From NCBI RefSeq assembly GCF_044324875.1, contig NZ_CP172185.1: a DNA stretch of 64,000 bases. One strand, given 5' to 3'. Both the position numbers and the translations under genes were made by a program. Position 1 is the first letter of the stretch; each line of letters starts with the position of its first letter. Below, in pieces: positions 4,908 through 37,385 of this stretch. The notes beneath the pieces are model-generated. The model was not told where the DNA came from, did no database searches, and saw nothing but the letters and a program-made list of their open reading frames with translations. This DNA comes from Escherichia coli. GTDB taxonomy: Bacteria; Pseudomonadota; Gammaproteobacteria; Enterobacterales; Enterobacteriaceae.

Positions 4908-7900
4908 TTACCAGCTATATTTCACTCCCAGCATGCCCTGAGTATCGCTATAGCCTTTATCACCTAGTTGCACACCGACATTCCCCCACAGGCTAAGGTT
5001 GTTATTTACTTTCGCCTCAACCCCGGTACGTACTTCACCGAGATTACGCGCACCATCACGGCTTACGGTTTGACCATTCATCTTCACTGCGTAGACTTTG
5101 CTGTTGTTGATCCAGTTCGCTTCAATGTAAGGCTGGAACTCACGCTGTTTACCATCGTCACGCTGGTGATGGCTGTTCAGGTAGGTTTTCACCCCAAGTC
5201 GCGTTTGCACGTTTCCGTCGCCTTCCGTTTCAATGCGTGTTCCGTCTTTCCGGGTATGGTCAGAATCTTTCACACCCATCCAGGTGATTTGTACCTGTGG
5301 CTGGACGTACCAGGTATTCAGCGTCCCTTCGCTGCCGCTAAAAGTTCCCGCTTCAAAGGTATACCCACCCTCAACAGAGGCCGTCACACCGCGAGAATCA
5401 TAGTCGTCAGCAGAACGGTTATCGGAACTGACGCTGTTATCAAACCAGTTATACAGCGCCCAGCTGTCAACATAAGCGCCGGTCTTATTCGCATCGTTCT
5501 GATACCAGGTCGCGTACAGTCCTGCGCTGTAACCGCTGATGCGCCCATCCGATTTATAACCCACACGATTACTCTGAGTATTACTGTGCTGATTGGCGTA
5601 GCCTGCCATCACGCCAAGATGCCAGCGATCCTGCGCGTTGCTACTCCACTGCGCCAAATCGCCTCCTAGCTGCAATACATAGCGGTTAGCCTGAGTATTT
5701 AGCTGGCCGTCACCGGTCCTGAAACGTTCGTGCCCCCCGACATGACGCATCCACATACTGCTTGCCGAACCCTGAGAATGCAGTGAATCTGTATACTGCG
5801 GCTCACCCAGACGGTCGTGTAAGCGATGGCTAAACAGCGAGTTGGCTGCGGCAATGTTGCTGATATAGCTTCCGGCCTCCGGGCGATAAACTGATGGGCC
5901 TTCCGGATCCACAACAGGGGGATTATTGATGGGATCGGGTGTATCCGGTGGCGTTACGCCTTCCCATTTACTGGTCAGATACCAGTTTTTCTCGTCATTC
6001 CCCTTCCCTTTAGCCAGCGTGTAGACGTAAGCCCCAGCTTCGACAGTTCCGGTGGTCAGCGCGAAGTTACCTGCAGAATTACCGCCAACCTCAATGAGTT
6101 CAATACCGTTGACCGTTTGTGCACCGACGCCGCCAATGTTATCAACCCGAACGCGAGTGTTCCCTTGGGTATCGCCTTTCACGTTCATCTTATCGGTGGG
6201 CGAATTATCGCCGCCCAGCGTCGCGTTGAACGTCATCAGGCCATTGTTTCCATTATAGTTACCGTTAACGGTCAGTACATTCCCCGGTTTCCCCCCTTCG
6301 CTGTTCATTTGAACCGTGCCACCATTCTCCAGGTTACCGCCGACAGTGGTTTTAGCGACACGCAGTGTCCCCCCTGGCATAACGTTCACATCACCTGCAG
6401 TGGTGACATTTCCCGACATCACACCGCTGTTATGGATATTAATGTGCTGACTTGCCATATTAATGGCAGAGTCGGAACCGAAAGCAATTTCACCACCCAC
6501 GATATCCGTCGTACCCTGATACGCCGCGGAATCGTTGTTAAGAGTCAGGATCCCGGTACCCAGTTTTGTCACATCACCGCTACCGCTGATACTGTGCGTC
6601 ATCGCCCAGCTACGCTCAGTGGAGATGGTGAGCAGGCCATTATTGATAACGGAAGCATCACCCAGGTTTTTCTGATCGTTGACGCTGAGCGCGCTGCCTG
6701 TATCAATGTTGAATTGCCCCACAAAGCGGCTATTATCGCCATCCAGCTCTACATCTGTCCTGGCGGTTGCGCTCACGATACCCTTCCCGCTTATGCTATT
6801 ACGCAGTTCTCCAGTCACGTTTTTTAGCGTTAACAGACCGTCATTGGCAATATTTCCTCTGCCTAACCCCTGCGTATTATCGAGGCTGACTTCCGCATTT
6901 GGGCTAATGCTGGTTAACGCATTGTAGCGTGCATTAAGCCCCTCGATAGCCAGTGTTCCCCCTGTAACATTCAGGTTTCCGCCACCTGTCAGTTCACCCT
7001 GACTGATCCCACCTTTATTTACCGTGAGCGCCCCCTCTTTGAACAAAACAGTCGAACCCATCTGCCCGGTGAATGTCTCTACCGTCTGCGTCGATCCATT
7101 AAGATCGACGATGGCCGCGTTGCTGATGTTCAGTTCCCGGGTGTTGCCAAGTGCACCATCCGCATCGGTACGTAATGTCCCCATCTGAACGTAGGTTGCC
7201 CCCTGATAGTCGTTCTGACCGTTGGAAAGCGAAACCTGTCGTACCGTATTGATTGCCAGATCCCCTTCACCACCGATTTTTGCCGACATATCGGCTGTTG
7301 CGCCATAGGCTCCGCCATGTTCGGCTAACGTCAGCTTTTGCCCACCATGGATGTTCAGCGCTTTCAGCCCATAGTTAACGTACAAACCATCACCTGGTGC
7401 GGTCGTGAGGCGGAATCCATAATCACCCTCGGCGACCACTGTTCCGTTTTGTGCAATGTGTAACTTTTTGTCCGCTTCCACCGCGTCGCCCTGTAAATCA
7501 CGTAACGTTAATGAGCCACCCGATCCAATAACCGTTTGCGCCTTCACCAGTTGAACGCCGACATGGCTATCATCGTGTTCCAGCAAATTGAGCGTCGTCA
7601 GAGGGTTATTCGCCATGGGATCATTCCACGGTTTAGGCACGTCGATAAGCACGTCGCCCATCCCGTTTACCTGATAGTTACGGCCTTTCCAGGTGTAGTC
7701 ACCCGTGCCGACAACCAGCGTATCGACGCTGATATATCCCTCCGCAAGCGTCGCAGCAGGTATATCCGTATCGAAAGTGAGCGTACCGCCATTCATGGCT
7801 AGTCCACCAATGGATTGCTCTCCCACTTTTACCGATGTGGTATTTTCACTGTCAGACTGAAGCATCGCGTGAGTAAGCGCAGCGGTGTTGTCGCGTTCCA

Positions 7901-9723
7901 GTGTGAAGGTACTGTCTTTCAGTTGGGCAACACCGGCGAATTCAGTTCCTGTTGCATGGGTAAAGCCAAACATTTTGTCGGAGGATGACAGCTGCACTCG
8001 CATCAAGCCATCGCCTTTGAGCGCATTGGTCAGCGTGTAATCTCCTGCACTGTTCGTTGATGCGAGAATGTCGAGCGTACCGGGGCTTGCAATGGTTACT
8101 TCACTCGAACCCATGCCTGTTACCCCATCTGCCGTATGTGACGCAATAGTCAGGAGGCCGTCATTGACCAGCGTTTTACCACTATAAGTATTCCCTGCAT
8201 TGAACACCGTATGGCCTGCATCATGCATCACTTTTCCGTCTTTATCGTCACCCGTAATCAGCATATCGACCTGGTAGCCGGCATCACTGTTATTAGTATG
8301 ATTAAAGACAAAAACGCCTTCGCCAAGACCAAACTCCACTTTCGTCGCATTGGTGATAAACCCGGCATCTGCCGCCGCCTCACCGTGAGCAGCACCAATG
8401 TTTAGCGTTCCTACAGCAGGTTCAAAAACACCTAAGTAAACTTCTCCACCTTCGACATTCAACGTGCCGTTATTCGTCAGGGTTAACGTACCCGTGCCTG
8501 TCGTCCCTACGTTCATATTGAATGTTTCAAGAAGAGAGTTCTGCCCATCCACCCGCACGTCGCCCTTACTTTTGTCATTGAGAGCTATTTGTGTATCACG
8601 CGCTTTAACTATACCTCCGGTGGTAATATTCAGTTCACCCGTGCCTAATACACCGACCTGTAGCAATTGGGCGTTAGTAGATGACGTTTTTAAATTCCAG
8701 AGACTATCCGTTGAAATATTAACTATCCCCTTACCGGAGGCATTTCCTCCGATAAATCCATAGCCCGTTGAATTAAGAGTGGCACCATTACTGACATTTA
8801 CGATGCCGCTACCAAAATTACCGACATTGATACCTACAGTATCGAACGATGATGTCGCATCCATCAGGTTCAGTGTGCCGATACCGCTTGCTTTATCGCC
8901 CAAAAAAGTAATATTTTGCGATACGAACTTACCGCCATCGCTGATATTGAGGTTTCCGACACCCGCAACACCAATGGTGGTATAGACATTCTTATTGACC
9001 TCCCACATCCCCCCCGTGGTGATGCTGACATTCCCGACGCCGGTTTCTCCATAACCGAGTGAGCTTCCTCCGTTGCTGACAACAAGCCCCTCATTACTGA
9101 TATTCATTTCGCCGTGGCCGTCATAACCAAGATTAGTTCCGAGATTAGTGATAACGGAGTTCTTATCCTTAATAGTAATGTTGCCTGTGCCTGTTTCTTT
9201 CATCCCCGCAGTGATAATTCCCGAATCTACTTTTCCTTCACTCGAGACATTAAGTTCACCGTCGCCAGCATCACCGATATAGATATAGCGGAAAGCTTCG
9301 CCCGTTCCGAGGAAATTCCAATGCCCTTTATCGGTCACGTTGACGACACCGTGGGACCCGTCCTGAACGCCCACAAATGAATATTCTTTGTTATTAATCA
9401 GTCCATTATTGGAAATATTGACTTTGCCATTACCGAAATATCCATTATAGAGTCTGCGTACCGTGATAACAGAGTCTTGATCCTGCACATTCAGGGTTCC
9501 GATACCGGTGGCATTGCCACCGATAATCGTATTTTCAGCCGTAATCAGCCCCCCCTCGCGAATAGTCGCTTCCCCCGTGCCTTGATTGCCAATTTGAAAT
9601 TCAATTGAGGAATCATTATTTTTTATTAGCCACTCGCCACCCTTTTCAACGACAACCTTACCATTGCTGTTCGCCTGATATCCTACAATGGCGACGATTG
9701 AACTCGTGACGTAACCCTTATCC
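4908..9723 (-). pseudogene. yneO: Autotransporter adhesin (YdeK/YneO-like) truncated at its 5' end by IS1; no signal peptide
   Basis: 1609-aa ORF whose first 5 codons lie inside the IS1 end (TTG start at 9737). Gly/Asn/Thr-rich repetitive passenger and a C-terminal beta-barrel ending ...GMLGVKYSW. N-terminus MAASPDKGYVTSS... has no signal peptide. Symbol given by synteny (between hipB and lsrK). Confidence 0.8.
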
Positions 9724-9778
9724 GGTGATGCTGCCAACTTACTGATTTAGTGTATGATGGTGTTTTTGAGGTGCTCCA

Positions 9779-25957: not shown

Positions 25958-27346
25958 TCAGATCCGGTCTTTCCACACCGTCTGGATATTACAGAATTCG
26001 TGTAAGCCGAAATGGGAAAGCTCACGACCAAAGCCACTCTTCTTCACGCCACCAAAGGCCACTCGCGCGTCGCTGGCACAATAACCATTGATAAACACCC
26101 CACCGCATTCCAGACGTGCCGCCATCTGTCTGGCCTGTGTTTCGTCGGTGGTGAAAATGGTCGCTGAAAGGCCGAACTCACTATCATTAGCCAGTTCCAG
26201 CGCATGTTCTGCATCTTTCGCAATGGTGATTGCCGCAACGGGGCCAAACATTTCTTCCCGAAACGCGGTCATTTCTGGGGTAACATTCGCCAGAACCGTT
26301 GGCGGATAGTAGTTACCTGCCCCAGCCATCTTTTCCCCGCCCAGTAACAAACGCGCACCCTGCGCCAGGGTTTTCTCCACCTGATGATGCAGCTCATCAC
26401 GTAAATCAAAACGAGCCATTGGTCCGAGAGTGTTCTCTTCGTCACGGGGATCGCCCATTTTCAAGGCTGCCGCAGCTGCCACAAAACGTTCGGTAAATGC
26501 CGAAGCAATTCCCTCTTCGATAATAAAGCGTTTTGCAGCTGCACAAACCTGTCCGGTATTCTGATAACGTCCGGCTACCGCCGCTTTAACCGCCAGTTCC
26601 AGATCGGCATCGTTAAGCACAATAAATGGATCCGAACCGCCCAGTTCCAGTACGCATTTTTTCAGTGCCGCTCCAGCCTGTGCGCCAATAGCCGCTCCCG
26701 CACGAACACTTCCGGTCACCGTGACAGCAGCAATGCGCGAGTCTTTAATCATCTGACTGACGCCGTCGTTGTCGGCATTCAGCCAGCCATATACGCCTTG
26801 TGGGATACCCGCATCTTTAAACACCTGGGCAATGAGCTGTGCACAGCCCATCACATTCGGCGCATGTTTAAGTAAGTAGCCGTTACCTGCAAGAATGATG
26901 GGAACCGCGCCACGCATCACCTGCCATAACGGAAAATTCCACGGCATAATCGCCAGAATTGTCCCCAACGGTCGATACTCAATAACTGCCTGCTGATTTT
27001 CCACCAGCGTAGGTTCCGCCTTCAGCATTGCCGGACCATGTTCTGCATACCAGTCACACAAATTCGCCGATTTCGCCACTTCAGCGCGCGCTTGGTTGAT
27101 TGGTTTGCCCATTTCACGGGTGATCATTTGCGCCATTTCTTCGCTACGGACACGCAGAGCCTTACCGATATCACGCAGTTTTTCAGCACGATAATCTATA
27201 TTTGTCTCGCGCCAGTCGCGAAAGCCTGCTGCCGCCAGCTGAAGTGCGTTTTCGATATCATCAGCGCCAGCCCACGGCAGCACAGAAAGTTGTTCACCGG
27301 TGGCAGGATTTATCGAAATTGCATGAGTTTCCGGAGTAATGGTCAT
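25958..27346 (-). CDS. sad: NAD-dependent succinate-semialdehyde dehydrogenase
   Basis: Aldehyde dehydrogenase family with catalytic-Cys region ([12 protein letters not shown]); start trimmed to MTITPETH to give 462 aa. Confidence 0.9.
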
Positions 27347-27446
27347 CGGGGTATCTCCTTTATGAGTCATTGTATGAAGATACGCAGATTTACTCTTGCT
27401 TTAAAATGAATAATATTAAGCCACTTATTCACGAATCGAGAATATT

Positions 27447-28322
27447 ATGGATCTGACCCAACTGGAGATGTTCAACGCGGTTGCCGAAGCTGGCAGCATA
27501 ACCCAGGCTGCAGCAAAAGTGCATCGCGTGCCGTCGAATCTCACTACCCGTCTACGCCAGCTGGAAACAGAACTGGGGGTTGATCTGTTTATTCGCGAGA
27601 ATCAGCGTTTACGTCTCTCTCCTGCCGGGCATAACTTTTTACGCTATAGCCAACAAATTCTCGCGTTAGTGGATGAAGCGCGGAGCGTTGTCGCTGGCGA
27701 TGAGCCGCAAGGTTTATTTTCTCTTGGTTCGCTGGAAAGCACCGCTGCAGTGCGCATTCCGGCCACGCTGGCGGAATTTAACCGTCGTTATCCCAAAATT
27801 CAGTTTTCACTTTCCACCGGCCCTTCCGGCACTATGCTGGAAGGTGTGCTGGAGGGAAAACTGAATGCAGCGTTTATTGATGGGCCCATTAACCATACTG
27901 CCATTGACGGGATACCGGTGTACCGCGAGGAGCTGATGATCGTCACGCCACAAGGACATGCGCCAGTAACCCGCGCCAGTCAGGTTAATGGCAGTAACAT
28001 TTATGCCTTCCGCGCCAATTGTTCGTATCGTCGCCACTTCGAGAGCTGGTTTCATGCTGACGGTGCCGCTCCGGGAACTATCCATGAGATGGAGTCTTAT
28101 CACGGAATGTTGGCCTGTGTGGTCGCAGGAGCAGGTATTGCGCTTATTCCGCGCTCTATGCTGGAAAGTATGCCGGGGCATCACCAGGTTGAAGCGTGGC
28201 CGTTAGCTGAGCAATGGCGTTGGTTAACAACCTGGCTGGTCTGGCGTCGCGGTGCGAAAACGCGTCCGCTTGAGGCATTTATTCAACTACTGGATGTGTC
28301 TGACTCGGCAAAACAGAGTTAG
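27447..28322 (+). CDS. yneJ: LysR-family regulator, divergent from sad
   Basis: 291 aa with N-terminal HTH ([32 protein letters not shown]). Confidence 0.9.
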
Positions 28323-28405
28323 CAATGAGCTATTTTTGATAGTTCTTGCGGCTAATATGCTCTATATAGTGATGCTCCGATGACTTATGACTATATGGGG
28401 CAAAT

Positions 28406-29521
28406 ATGGTTACGCCAGTAAGCATCAGCAATTACATATCTCTTCCTTATGATTTTCCCGTTCGTAATATTGCACCTCAGGTAAAAGAAGTTTTAAAGGA
28501 TTTTATTGATGCGCTAAGTACAATAATATGTGATGAAGAGTGGCGTACGTCTTTAAACATCAGCTCAGCCACAAAAAAGATATTTAATAACCTTGATAAC
28601 TTATCATATATTCAGAGAACCTCTTTCCGGGGTAACGACACGCTATACAATGAAAAAGTTCAATTTAAACTCACTTATCCTGCCAGGAATGGAAGACACA
28701 AAGAAAATATTGAATTTCAGGTAGTAATAAATTTAAGCCCTATTTATTTAGATAATTTCCGCCATGATGGGGAAATTAATATTTTTTGCGCTCCCAACCC
28801 AAAGCCTGTCACTATGGGGCGCGTATTTCAGACTGGCGTCGAGCGTGTGCTCTTTCTGTTTCTGAATGACTTTATAGAACAATTTCCAATGATCAACCCT
28901 GGCGTTCCTATCAAAAGAGCGCATACGCCACATATTGAACCCCTGCATCCGGATCACCATACCGCTGCAGATTACTTACGCCAGTTTGATTTGCTTGTCC
29001 TGAATTTTATCTCTCGCGGTAATTTTGTCATACTCCCCCGATTATGGAATAACTCTGAGGTTCACAGATGGTTCGGGAATAAAGAACCTAACTTGCTCAC
29101 CGCTATTCTCGACATAACGGACAGCGAATTAAAAGAGGATTTATTGCAAAGCCTGATGGATTCACTAGGTTCTAACAAACATGTACTACCCGAAGTCTGC
29201 ATCTGCTTTTTATCCCTTTTAACAGAACAAGATTTTCCACATTTTCAGGACTTGTTTTTATTTTTCGCCAATATGTTATTGCACTATCACCAATTTATGA
29301 ATCCCAATGAAAGTGATTTGATTGACGTGTTGATGCCAGCATCATTAAGTGATGATAAAATTATCAAACATATGGCGCGCAGGACCCTCAAACTTTTTGT
29401 AAAAAATGAAACGCCGCCAAAAGTTACTCACGAAGACCTGGTGAAAAACAGGCCTCGCTCCCCTGTCAGATCACCTATACCCGCAACCGCCAAAACGCCA
29501 GACCTCCCTGAACGTCATTAA
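28406..29521 (+). CDS. yneK: Uncharacterised protein YneK; markedly AT-rich gene
   Basis: 371-aa ORF with no recognisable motifs; visibly lower GC than neighbours. Confidence 0.8.
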   Translation: MVTPVSISNYISLPYDFPVRNIAPQVKEVLKDFIDALSTIICDEEWRTSLNISSATKKIFNNLDNLSYIQRTSFRGNDTLYNEKVQFKLTYPARNGRHKENIEFQVVINLSPIYLDNFRHDGEINIFCAPNPKPVTMGRVFQTGVERVLFLFLNDFIEQFPMINPGVPIKRAHTPHIEPLHPDHHTAADYLRQFDLLVLNFISRGNFVILPRLWNNSEVHRWFGNKEPNLLTAILDITDSELKEDLLQSLMDSLGSNKHVLPEVCICFLSLLTEQDFPHFQDLFLFFANMLLHYHQFMNPNESDLIDVLMPASLSDDKIIKHMARRTLKLFVKNETPPKVTHEDLVKNRPRSPVRSPIPATAKTPDLPERH

Positions 29522-29670
29522 ACCGTGATGTTACCGACTCTCTGACGCGGAACAGAATCAGCGTCAGAGAAACGGAAAACGCGATCCAGATCACAAATGC
29601 ATTGTATTCACATCATTAACCGTTTTAAGATCATTTCATCACTTTTTCGCAACTCACCCGATAATCTGTT

Positions 29671-30861
29671 ATGACAACAAACACTGTTTCCCGCAAAGTG
29701 GCGTGGCTACGGGTCGTTACGCTGGCAGTCGCCGCCTTCATCTTCAACACCACCGAATTTGTCCCTGTTGGCCTGCTCTCTGACATTGCGCAAAGTTTTC
29801 ACATGCAAACCGCTCAGGTCGGCATCATGTTGACGATTTATGCATGGGTAGTGGCGCTAATGTCATTGCCTTTTATGTTAATGACCAGTCAGGTTGAACG
29901 GCGCAAATTACTGATCTGCCTGTTTGTGGTGTTTATTGCCAGCCACGTACTGTCGTTTTTGTCGTGGAGCTTTACCGTTCTGGTGATCAGTCGCATTGGT
30001 GTGGCTTTTGCACATGCGATTTTCTGGTCGATTACGGCGTCTCTGGCGATCCGTATGGCTCCGGCCGGGAAGCGAGCGCAGGCATTGAGTTTAATTGCCA
30101 CCGGTACAGCACTGGCAATGGTATTAGGTTTACCTCTCGGGCGCATTGTGGGGCAGTATTTTGGCTGGCGAATGACCTTCTTCGCGATTGGTATCGGGGC
30201 GTTTATTACCCTTTTGTGCCTGATTAAGTTACTTCCCTTACTGCCCAGTGAGCATTCCGGTTCGCTGAAAAGCCTACCGCTATTATTCCGCCGCCCGGCA
30301 TTGATGAGCATTTATTTGTTAACTGTGGTGGTTGTCACCGCCCATTACACGGCATACAGCTATATCGAGCCTTTTGTGCAAAACATTGCGGGATTCAGCG
30401 CCAACTTTGCCACGGCATTACTGTTATTACTCGGTGGTGCGGGCATTATTGGCAGCGTGATTTTCGGTAAACTGGGTAATCAGTATGCGTCTGCGTTGGT
30501 AAGTACGGCGATTGCGCTGTTGCTGGTGTGCCTGGCACTGCTGCTACCTGCGGCGAACAGTGAAATACACCTCGGGGTGCTGAGTATTTTCTGGGGGATA
30601 GCGATGATGATCATCGGGCTTGGTATGCAGGTTAAAGTGCTGGCGCTGGCACCAGATGCTACCGACGTCGCGATGGCGCTATTCTCTGGGATATTTAATA
30701 TTGGAATCGGCGCGGGTGCGTTGGTAGGTAATCAGGTCAGTCTGCACTGGTCAATGTCGATGATTGGTTATGTGGGCGCGGTGCCTGCTTTTGCCGCGTT
30801 AATATGGTCAATCATCATTTTCCGCCGCTGGCCAGTGACACTCGAAGAACAGACGCAATAG
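29671..30861 (+). CDS. ydeA: MFS sugar efflux transporter
   Basis: 396 aa, 12-TM MFS architecture. Confidence 0.9.
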
Positions 30862-30864
30862 TTG

Positions 30865-30887
30865 AAAGGCCCATTCGGGCCTTTTTT
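30865..30887 (+). terminator. Rho-independent terminator after ydeA
   Basis: Hairpin AGGCCC-ATTC-GGGCCT followed by TTTTTT. Confidence 0.6.
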
Positions 30888-31551
30888 AGTGGTACGTTTT
30901 AATGATTTCCAGGATGCCGTTAATAATAAACTGCACCCCCATACATACCAGCAGGAATCCCATCAGACGGGAGATCGCTTCAATGCCCCCCTTACCCACC
31001 AGCCGCATAATTGCGCCAGAGCTGCGTAGACTTCCCCACAAAATAACCGCCACCAGGAAAAAGATCAGCGGCGGCGCAACCATCAGTACCCAATCAGCAA
31101 AGGTTGAACTCTGACGCACTGTGGACGCCGAGCTAATAATCATCGCTATGGTTCCCGGACCGGCGGTACTTGGCATTGCCAGTGGTACAAAAGCAATATT
31201 GGCGCTGGGTTCATCTTCCAGCTCTTCCGACTTGCTTTTCGCTTCCGGTGAATCAATTGCTTTCTGTTGCGGAAAGAGCATTCGAAAACCGATAAACGCG
31301 ACGATTAAGCCGCCTGCAATTCGCAGACCGGGAATCGAAATGCCAAATGTATCCATCACCAGTTGCCCGGCGTAATACGCCACCATCATGATGGCAAAGA
31401 CGTACACCGAGGCCATCAACGACTGACGATTACGTTCGGCACTGTTCATGTTGCCTGCCAGGCCAAGAAATAACGCGACAGTTGTTAATGGGTTAGCTAA
31501 CGGTAGTAACACCACCAGCCCCAGGCCAATTGCTTTAAATAAATCTAACAT
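30886..31551 (-). CDS. marC: MarC-family inner-membrane protein
   Basis: 221 aa membrane protein divergent from marRAB. Confidence 0.9.
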
Positions 31552-35602: not shown

Positions 35603-36493
35603 TTAAACTCGGTTAATCACATTTTGTTCGTCAATAAACATACAGCGATTTCTTCCGGTTTGCTTACCCTCATACATTGCCCGGTCCGCTCTTCCAATGA
35701 CCACATCCAGAGGTTCTTCAGGAAATGCGCGACTCACACCTGCAGTCACGGTAATGTTGATATGCCCTTCAGAATGTGTGATGGCATGGTTATCGACTAA
35801 CTGGCAAATTCTGATACCTGCACGACATGCTTCTTCATCATTAGCCGCTTTGACAATAATGATAAATTCTTCGCCACCGTAGCGATAAACCGTTTCGTAA
35901 TCGCGCGTCCAACTGGCTAAGTAAGTTGCCAGGGTGCGTAATACTACATCGCCGATTAAATGCCCGTAGGTATCATTAACCAATTTAAATCGGTCAATAT
36001 CCAACAACATTAAATAAAGATTCAGAGGCTCAGCGTTGCGTAACTGATGATCAAAGGATTCATCAAGAACCCGACGACCCGGCAATCCCGTCAAAACATC
36101 CATATTGCTACGGATCGTCAGCAAATAAATTTTGTAATCGGTTAATGCCGCAGTAAAAGAAAGCAACCCTTCCTGAAAGGCGTCGAAATGCGCGTCCTGC
36201 CAGTGATTTTCAACAATAGCCAACATTAATTCCCGACCACAGTTATGCATATGTTGATGGGCAGAATCCATTAGCCGAACGTAAGGTAATTCATCGTTAT
36301 CGAGTGGTCCCAGATGATCAATCCACCGACCAAACTGGCACAGTCCATAAGAATGGTTATCCGTTATTTCTGGCTTACTGGCATCTCTCGCGACCACGCT
36401 GTGAAACATACTCACCAGCCACTGGTAGTGGGCATCGATAGCCTTATTGAGATTTAACAAGATGGCATCAATTTCCGTTGTCTTCTTGATCAT
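35603..36493 (-). CDS. dgcZ: Zinc-sensing diguanylate cyclase
   Basis: Start trimmed to MIKKTTEIDAILLNLNKAIDAHYQWLV giving 296 aa; GGDEF domain with RYGGEEF. Confidence 0.9.
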   Translation of the reverse strand: MIKKTTEIDAILLNLNKAIDAHYQWLVSMFHSVVARDASKPEITDNHSYGLCQFGRWIDHLGPLDNDELPYVRLMDSAHQHMHNCGRELMLAIVENHWQDAHFDAFQEGLLSFTAALTDYKIYLLTIRSNMDVLTGLPGRRVLDESFDHQLRNAEPLNLYLMLLDIDRFKLVNDTYGHLIGDVVLRTLATYLASWTRDYETVYRYGGEEFIIIVKAANDEEACRAGIRICQLVDNHAITHSEGHINITVTAGVSRAFPEEPLDVVIGRADRAMYEGKQTGRNRCMFIDEQNVINRV

Positions 36494-36747
36494 TGCCACT
36501 CCTTTTTCACAGTTCCTTGTGCGCGCTATTCTAACGAGAGAAAAGCAAAATTACGTCAATATTTTCATAGAAATCCGAAGTTATGAGTCATCTCTGAGAT
36601 AACATTGTGATTTGAAACAAAATCAGCAGATAAAAAAGTGTTTAATTCTGTAAATTAAGCCTGCATTATCGCAATTAAAAGGATGACAAATAGCATAAAC
36701 CAATACCCTAATGGCCCAGTAGTTCAGGCCATCAGGCTCATTTATTT

Positions 36748-37140
36748 TTATTTCTGCAAATGAGTGACCCGAACGACGGCCGGCGCGCTTTTCTTATCCA
36801 GACTGCCGCTAATGTTGATCATCTGGTCCGGCTGAACTTCTCGTCCATCAAAGACTGCCGCAGGAATAACAACATTAATTTCACCGCTCTTATCGCGAAA
36901 AACGTAACGGTTCTCTCCTTTGTGAGAAATCAAATTACCGCGTAGTGAAACCGAAGCGCCATCATGCATGGTTTTTGCGAAATCTACGGTCATTTTTTTT
37001 GCATCATCGGTTCCGCGATAGCCATCTTCTATTGCATGAGGCGGCGGTGGCGCTGCATCCTGTTTTAAACCGCCCTGGTCATCTGCCAACGCATAAGGCA
37101 TGACAAGAAAACTTGCTAATACAATGGCCTGAAATTTCAT
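36748..37140 (-). CDS. ydeI: Periplasmic OB-fold (YgiW/BOF family) stress protein
   Basis: 130 aa with signal peptide [19 protein letters not shown]. Confidence 0.9.
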
Positions 37141-37385
37141 ACTGACTCCTTAATTGCGTTTGGTTTGACTTATTAAGTCTGGTTGCTATTTTTATAATTG
37201 ACAAATAAGAATACTGCCAATTGTTATAAGGCATTTAAAATCAGGCAACTAGCTGTCAAATATTAAGAGAATTTAACTCACTAAAGTAAGAAGAAGATTA
37301 AAGAGTCTTAAACATATTTCAGAACAATCAGATTTATAAATTTGAAAATTATTATAACGGAAGGGTATACAAAAAAAGTAATTTT

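Follow-up and report, generated by a model that had tools for sequence, protein, structure and literature searches.

The gene yneK of Escherichia coli raises a simple question: how did a strongly AT-rich reading frame with no assigned function come to lie between ptrR and ydeA, and does it encode a protein? We addressed this question in a stretch of 64,000 nucleotides of the E. coli contig NZ_CP172185.1 (assembly GCF_044324875.1), referred to below as the window. Our analysis indicates that yneK is probably the cargo of an ancient 1.26-kb AT-rich insert at the 3' end of ptrR, that it is repressed by H-NS and StpA, and that it is a constrained, yet dispensable, coding gene. Two features are central to this reading:

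28406-29521, + strand: yneK coding sequence, specifying a protein of 371 aa, 43 kDa and pI 6.3, predicted to be soluble.
28315-29572, no strand assigned: AT-rich block carrying yneK and read as an insert, 1,258 bp, 40.1% GC, delimited by alignment of filled and empty junctions, GC content and tblastn.

The open reading frame (ORF) runs over 371 codons from ATG to stop, is annotated as yneK in RefSeq genomes, and matches the NCBIfam equivalog NF033404 'YneK' with 803.7 bits (curated cutoff 40 bits), residues 1-371 aligning to profile positions 1-371. The gene order is sad (reverse), ptrR, yneK and ydeA (all forward), marC (reverse) and marRAB (forward). Describing yneK as lying between the targets of two regulators, as the first-pass annotation did, is therefore inaccurate, since its left neighbour ptrR is a regulator gene itself and not the target of one. 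Over 27400-30900, strain BEC1-S17-ESBL-09 has the same sequence (100% identity), and nearly all of 5,426 complete E. coli genomes match this segment at 95-99%.

The base composition of yneK is exceptional within the window, at 39.8% GC versus 49.5% overall (48, 32 and 39% at the first, second and third codon positions, respectively). The minimum of a sliding window of 1116 bp falls on yneK, and only 0.24% of such windows across the 64 kb are equally low. When the annotated genes were mapped onto the window (51 of them intact), yneK exhibited both the lowest GC (50.4 ± 2.9% for the 50 others; z = -3.6) and the lowest third-position GC (39.0% versus 52.5 ± 4.7%; z = -2.9). The earlier remark that its GC is visibly lower than that of all neighbours thus holds, the value being outside the normal range. 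Furthermore, the low GC is not confined to the ORF and continues into the non-coding DNA to its left and right: the block as a whole measures 40.1%, while the adjacent 5 kb on either side measure 50.8% and 48.7%. The E. albertii copy of yneK is at 36.2% GC.

In order to define the boundaries of the block, the orthologous loci of other species were fetched via a YdeA anchor, and their genes placed by tblastn (loci L007-L018). E. coli and E. albertii carry yneK at the same position with identical junctions. In Salmonella arizonae, Salmonella diarizonae and two Citrobacter genomes, ptrR adjoins ydeA across a spacer of 114-231 bp that is devoid of yneK-like sequence, and the same arrangement, with a spacer of 88-166 bp, is seen in E. 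whittamii, Escherichia sp. E1V33, 'E. coli' SCPM-O-B-8794 and Escherichia sp. MOD1-EC7003. With the junction empty in these eight related genomes and no homolog outside Escherichia, the proposal of the first-pass annotation that yneK was horizontally acquired gains support. The last ~90 bp of every spacer correspond to a conserved ydeA upstream region, which adjoins ptrR in all yneK-less species. By alignment, the insert extends from just inside the ptrR end, at the stop codon, to 29572: the empty site reads ...GCGGCAAAATGAGACATGGATCAC..., and the filled site ...TCGGCAAAAC[insert]CGGAAAACGCGATCCAGATCAC.... The elements of the junction are:

28306-28314, + strand: left copy of an imperfect direct repeat (CGGCAAAAC), within the last ptrR codons, corresponding to the single GCGGCAAAATGAG of empty sites.
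28323-28405, + strand: ptrR-yneK spacer, 83 bp, 37% GC, within the insert and largely conserved in E. albertii.
29538-29571, + strand: stable stem-loop (CUCUGACGC...GCGUCAGAG) with a 9-bp stem and without a U-tract, 17 nt past the yneK stop.
29573-29580, + strand: right copy of the flanking direct repeat (CGGAAAAC), from the junction alignment.
29581-29670, + strand: ancestral ydeA upstream region (GATCACAAA...TTTTAAGATCA...TTTTCGCAAC), from spacer alignment across Escherichia, Salmonella and Citrobacter.

The flanking repeat looks like a target-site duplication, although it falls short of proof. Because chance repeats are frequent in 1.5 kb and terminal inverted repeats are lacking, we do not claim a transposition mechanism; a mobile-element origin was considered and set aside, the block having no terminal inverted repeats and a direct repeat not above chance. 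Within each species, the two copies of the repeat agree at one base that differs between the species: E. coli has G (CGGCAAAAC / CGGAAAAC), E. albertii A (CGACAAAACG twice). Coincidence or gene conversion could account for this, or it could be a vestige of how the block was inserted. Both E. albertii and all E. coli alleles retain the stem of the hairpin, with a diverging loop, and the hairpin is likely to serve the inserted block as a 3'-end element or terminator. A terminator scan found no canonical terminator at this hairpin, and no Rfam covariance model matched at E <= 1 on either strand of 27000-31000.

Across the Enterobacteriaceae, the ptrR-ydeA junction is a variable spot. Unrelated cargo occupies it in Enterobacteriaceae RIT714, where a GNAT acetyltransferase and a PhzF-like gene are found (L017, 3326-4824), and in Citrobacter sedlakii, where 4.7 kb encode a major facilitator superfamily transporter, a hydrolase, a LysR regulator and a PhzF-like protein (L012, 299-4839).

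Published transcriptome data indicate that the block is strongly repressed. In the RNA sequencing (RNA-seq) data of Srinivasan et al. 2015 (PMC4288151, supplementary file 3, sheet hs-wt), which compare the wild type with an hns-stpA double mutant such that a negative log fold change (logFC) denotes lower expression in the wild type, yneK (b1527) has a logFC of -5.65 (P = 1.3e-67). Its left neighbour ptrR (b1526) is affected about 4-fold (logFC -2.12, P = 4.5e-13), ydeA (b1528) shows no significant change (logFC +0.47), and sad (b1525) has a logFC of +0.79 (P = 0.00086). Since ydeA is unaffected whereas yneK is derepressed approximately 50-fold, the derepression is specific to the AT-rich block. 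The conjecture that the gene is H-NS-silenced is thereby supported, in this case by a mutant that lacks both H-NS and StpA. Silencing would operate through the formation of H-NS filaments over the AT-rich block. Sequences close to the high-affinity H-NS motif occur in yneK at about 3-fold the density of the whole window, a figure that largely restates the AT-richness of the gene.

The spacer 28323-28405 presumably holds the yneK promoter and 5' untranslated region. In vitro genomic systematic evolution of ligands by exponential enrichment (gSELEX) placed NtrC and RpoH holoenzyme peaks in this spacer and an RpoS peak within yneK. Our scan of the spacer returned no sigma-70 consensus and no sigma-54-like match, and promoter-like sites inside yneK show no excess (5 found versus 4.6 expected).

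The window contains a second AT-rich patch at approximately 36200-37320 (40.7% GC), made up of the 5' end of dgcZ, the dgcZ-ydeI spacer and ydeI. In the K-12 RNA-seq comparison of the wild type with hns-stpA, the values for ydeI (b1536), ydeJ (b1537) and mgtS (b4599) are -6.9, -6.2 and -4.65, respectively. It appears that ydeJ is absent from the window, a pseudogene fragment alone lying between ydeI and dcp.

The first-pass annotation had assigned yneK to the core genome; its distribution within E. coli contradicts this, as a deletion or a frameshift affects the gene in no fewer than 35% of complete E. coli genomes, so that it is accessory-like. Two lesions are common:

28491-29446, no strand assigned: main segment missing in the common deletion allele, with 85 bp of the yneK 5' end kept.
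28782-28787, + strand: T6 homopolymer; contraction to T5 shifts the frame and brings in a stop at codon 153, and RefSeq flags T5 copies as 'frameshifted'.

The deletion allele also has a second short gap near the stop codon, so that ~1,004 bp are removed in all, and its exact junction occurs in 1,114 of the 5,426 complete genomes (20.5%), including that of Nissle 1917. Genomes with the 45-mer diagnostic of T5 number 772 (14%), those with the in-frame T6 45-mer 3,085 (57%). Other damaged copies comprise an IS1-interrupted gene (H24), genes with in-frame deletions and Shigella alleles that are truncated. Strains from which yneK-ydeA-marC had been deleted in the laboratory are viable, and under butanol stress the loss is even an advantage, which the authors credit to marC. 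Hence, yneK is dispensable, and it has been lost in several Escherichia lineages. Single assemblies also contain ORFs that fuse PtrR to YneK (534, 388 and 253 aa; P0002, P0006 and P0019) or MarR to YneK (411 aa; P0007), which points to stop-codon loss or local deletions joining yneK to its neighbours.

The age of the insertion can be judged from synonymous divergence (dS). Against E. albertii, dS is 1.20 for yneK and 0.955 for the concatenated flanking genes (sad, ydeA and marC, 0.82-1.30), while within E. coli the corresponding values are 0.129 and 0.087. The dS of yneK tracks that of its flanking genes; therefore, the block has been at this site since about the time of the E. coli/E. albertii split. 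In the scenario that we favour, a 1.26-kb AT-rich block, whose donor was not found, would have been inserted at the ptrR 3' end in the common ancestor of these two species and would have been inherited at the same site since. In a neighbour-joining tree of sad, ydeA and marC, E. albertii is basal and the yneK-less Escherichia lineages fall between this species and E. coli, whose sister is MOD1-EC7003. The patchy occurrence of yneK is most readily explained by a single ancient gain, at least two clean losses thereafter and continuing decay within E. coli. An extra 62 nt in the MOD1-EC7003 spacer was considered as a possible yneK remnant and rejected, its alignment score of 18-21 being no different from a shuffled mean of 19-20; it is unrelated to the yneK block.

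E. coli also harbours a rare, strongly divergent haplotype (L023, E. coli 2017-02-2CC), present at 99% identity or more in 19 of the 5,426 genomes, with the next-best class at 87.5%. It spans the 3' half of ptrR and yneK (27900-29500) and ends at the yneK stop codon. Its dS of ~0.51-0.55 is on a par with that between E. coli and non-coli Escherichia lineages, its flanks being at ~0.17; identity falls to 77-84% at 28,900-29,400, and the flanks are sharply normal. Such a pattern suggests either introgression, from a yneK-bearing Escherichia lineage as yet unsampled, or a polymorphism of ancient date. In addition, the divergence of this minor allele implies that yneK exists, or existed, in another Escherichia lineage. 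In a separate observation, contig SMXE01000224.1 (L007), labelled 'MAG: Caldithrix sp.', matches sad, ptrR, yneK, ydeA and marC of the window at 96-100% amino acid identity; this contig carries E. coli DNA and the metagenome bin is therefore contaminated.

The same data allow a different history, in which the block entered a single Escherichia lineage and was then transferred between E. albertii and E. coli by recombination in the flanks, the yneK-less lineages never having had it. Such lateral spread would explain why four nested Escherichia lineages have pristine, Salmonella-like empty sites, and recombination at this locus is real, as the minor haplotype of ptrR 3' half and yneK attests. 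We nevertheless consider it unlikely: with the dS of yneK at or above that of the flanks, any such exchange must date back about as far as the split of the two species; both species have identical junctions; loss of yneK is directly observed in E. coli; and the minor allele implies the gene in a further Escherichia lineage.

Returning to the ancient insert, we asked whether its cargo behaves as a coding gene. The 371-codon frame is intact in E. coli, in the minor allele and in E. albertii, at 27% nucleotide divergence. The ratio of non-synonymous to synonymous divergence (dN/dS) of yneK amounts to 0.17 in the comparison with E. albertii and to 0.18 in that with the minor E. coli allele (dS 0.5-1.3), as opposed to 0.005-0.06 for the neighbouring genes, the dN of yneK being approximately six times that of its flanks. 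Judged by these substitution patterns, yneK is under purifying selection and codes for a genuine protein, of 43 kDa and soluble. The protein has no hydrophobic segment (maximum 19-residue Kyte-Doolittle mean of 1.17), and four regions may be distinguished:

28406-28825, + strand: N-terminal region, aa 1-140, with predicted helices (24-61) followed by a beta meander (63-128), of low confidence (AlphaFold2 predicted local distance difference test (pLDDT) 30-55); dN/dS 0.10-0.17.
28826-29050, + strand: central block, aa 141-215, the most constrained region, including ERVLFLFLNDFIEQFP and the His-rich KRAHTPHIEPLxPDHH, and with invariant alignment columns.
29051-29425, + strand: predicted C-terminal all-helical domain, aa 216-340, generic helical-repeat-like and the fastest-diverging folded part; dN/dS 0.22.
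29426-29518, + strand: predicted disordered proline-rich tail, aa 341-371, with conserved RPRSPV...KTP...ERH; pLDDT <40, dN/dS 0.25-0.72.

The dN/dS of aa 141-215 is 0.065 in both comparisons, with E. albertii and with the minor allele, and the AlphaFold2 structure of this block is not confidently predicted. In the tail, the invariant residues are R349-V354, K363-P365, R370 and H371. The full-length AlphaFold2 model, built from a 5-sequence alignment, has a mean pLDDT of 48.7; a model of aa 140-345 reaches a pLDDT of 62.1 and a predicted template modelling score of 0.66, with reasonable confidence only at the helical aa ~227-334. A Foldseek search of the full-length model against the PDB produced no match at E <= 0.001, and its matches to CorA, with TM-scores of ~0.1, are meaningless. 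The architecture would hence consist of an N-terminal alpha/beta region, a conserved His-rich centre, a helical-repeat-like C-terminal domain and a proline-rich tail. The combination of a helical-repeat-like domain and a proline-rich tail suggests a protein-binding role for YneK, which is our best guess from these weak structural features; the protein may bind partner proteins under conditions that relieve silencing.

A bolder proposal would make YneK the founder of an Escherichia-specific family with a condition-specific role, perhaps as a eukaryote-facing or secreted factor. It would draw on the His-rich core and the SP/TP proline-rich tail, both conserved, together with the polar N-terminus and the helical-repeat domain, and we regard it as very improbable. 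If it were true, the loss of yneK in the Nissle 1917-type deletion lineage, which we take to be phylogroup B2, and in the frameshift lineage would be adaptive rather than neutral, and the divergent alleles would have been exchanged between Escherichia species under diversifying pressure. The narrower suggestion that YneK acts on a host as an effector of the type III secretion kind, or faces eukaryotes in some other way, attracts even less credence from us. The effectors EspF and Tir have proline-rich regions, low GC, orphan-like sequence and a polar N-terminus, and YneK resembles them in all four respects. This is resemblance only: unlike these effectors, YneK shows no sequence or confident structural homology and no association with a prophage or pathogenicity island. 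It has no Pfam or PHROG match, and its neighbours are ptrR, ydeA and marC/marRAB.

At the opposite extreme, yneK might be no functional gene at all, and merely a reading frame that is decaying or arose by chance, in AT-rich junk DNA under silencing. The lack of homologs, of a domain and of a confident fold, the ~50-fold repression, the deleted or frameshifted copies in at least 35% of E. coli genomes and the want of a validated phenotype are all compatible with this. AT-rich DNA, however, abounds in stop codons, and the frame of 371 codons has nonetheless stayed intact at dS values of up to 1.2-1.3; moreover, dN/dS is 0.17 with a domain-dependent constraint (0.065 to 0.25 and above), and both the tail motif and the central block are conserved. 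We therefore hold a non-functional frame to be highly implausible, and maintain that yneK is the coding cargo of the insert.

No relative of YneK was found beyond the genus. A phmmer search of 1.84 billion representative proteins gave 47 matches, all of them Escherichia-type fragments of at least 55% identity and none outside Escherichia/Shigella, while word-index searches of 5.8 billion clusters, run once with the sequence by itself and once with a profile, each gave an identical set of 22 Escherichia/Shigella clusters and none beyond. The low-identity phmmer matches were rejected as distant homologs, being error-ridden copies of the E. coli gene, as were P0020, a damaged E. coli allele, and P0005, an E. 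coli allele with an in-frame deletion. By tblastn, 50,697 phage records contained no yneK match, and a plasmid collection yielded only mislabelled chromosomes and chromosome fragments, with no true plasmid copy. Pfam holds no YneK family (the best match, CotH, has an E-value of 0.12, below cutoff), the PDB gave no match by sequence or by profile, and PHROGs gave none. E. coli YneK has no match in PADLOC-DB; the E. albertii ortholog alone matches the PADLOC SAVED-TM model (14.5 bits, E = 0.0046), a match that E. coli YneK does not share.

These results agree with the first reading of the sequence, in which no catalytic or transmembrane motif was recognised and the function was called unknown: there is neither a Pfam family nor a hydrophobic segment, and the remote-homology and structure searches gave no confident functional assignment. 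In the literature, yneK is uncharacterised. It is a putative hit, lacking validation, of a host-factor screen for CRISPR-associated transposases (CAST), and an uncorrected Scoary genome association linked it with adherence to bovine recto-anal cells, which its authors could not interpret; the remaining mentions are incidental. The family, fold and literature searches assigned neither a fold nor a function to YneK.

The restriction to a single genus with no identifiable donor, together with the debate on the origin of bacterial orphan genes that PMC12315717 describes as continuing, would suit de novo birth from local non-coding DNA or an old native gene of drifted composition. This is the least credible origin of all: the empty sites offer just 88-231 bp, equivalent to the conserved ydeA upstream region, and no yneK precursor; all three codon positions have lowered GC, as have, to an equal degree, the non-coding flanks of the block; and the lack of homologs elsewhere speaks against an old native gene.

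Several points weigh against an ancient, silenced insert carrying a constrained gene. Despite its inferred age, yneK has not drifted in GC toward the value of its host. The nested Escherichia empty sites retain no yneK remnant, so that a single ancient gain needs at least two clean losses. The block is without a donor, integrase, transposase, tRNA or terminal inverted repeats, and its flanking repeat of 8-10 bp is at chance level, repeats of 9-10 nt forming 12 families within 1.5 kb. The derepression in the hns-stpA double mutant could be indirect. Finally, the structure models are of low to moderate confidence, which makes the domain description of YneK tentative, and detection of the protein was not found in the searchable literature.

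Comparison with known systems helps to place the locus. Foreign AT-rich islands such as the locus of enterocyte effacement (LEE) and SPI-1, a pathogenicity island of Salmonella, are repressed by H-NS. The yneK block is similarly foreign AT-rich DNA, H-NS/StpA-repressed and with a sharp compositional boundary against core genes; unlike these islands, it comprises 1.26 kb and one gene, without an integrase, tRNA or insertion sequence (IS) signature. The ORFans of E. coli were reportedly treated as a class by Daubin and Ochman in 2004. As described in Yu & Stoltzfus 2012 (PMC3514957) and in a Genome Res review of 2025 (PMC12315717), such genes are, like yneK, AT-rich, fast-evolving, limited to a narrow clade and variably present. 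Typical ORFans are short and often strain-specific, whereas yneK encodes 371 aa, predates the E. coli/E. albertii split and is under purifying selection with domain structure. The bgl operon, as portrayed in Sankar et al. 2009 (PMC2646131), shares with yneK an above-average AT content, strong H-NS-dependent repression in laboratory conditions, and lineage-specific decay within E. coli with long-term retention elsewhere. In contrast to the single, Escherichia-only gene yneK, the bgl operon comprises several genes, its biochemistry is known and homologs occur in many bacteria.

Thus, yneK is an ordinary H-NS-silenced foreign orphan, unusual in its length, its age, its lasting AT-richness and its clear constraint despite frequent loss. 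It reveals no new mechanism. What is newly defined for this gene are the mapped boundaries of the insert, the ~50-fold repression by H-NS/StpA, the proof of coding and the constrained segment aa 141-215. Three natural loss-of-function states are common in the population, and these variants, together with a derepression condition (Δhns ΔstpA) and target residues, provide material for experiments. Furthermore, the gene is a clean example for the origin of bacterial orphan genes and for the persistence of AT-rich silenced DNA over tens of millions of years.

Elsewhere in the window, collinearity with the reference strain breaks at ~3548, inside hipA, and only nt 1-911 match contiguously. A large autotransporter of the ECSE_1600 type at 4908-9724 aligns partly and out of frame, and ynfA (47042-47376) appears to be frameshifted. 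An IS1 copy lies between speG and ynfC at 48448-49215, and is absent from the near-identical BEC1-S17-ESBL-09.

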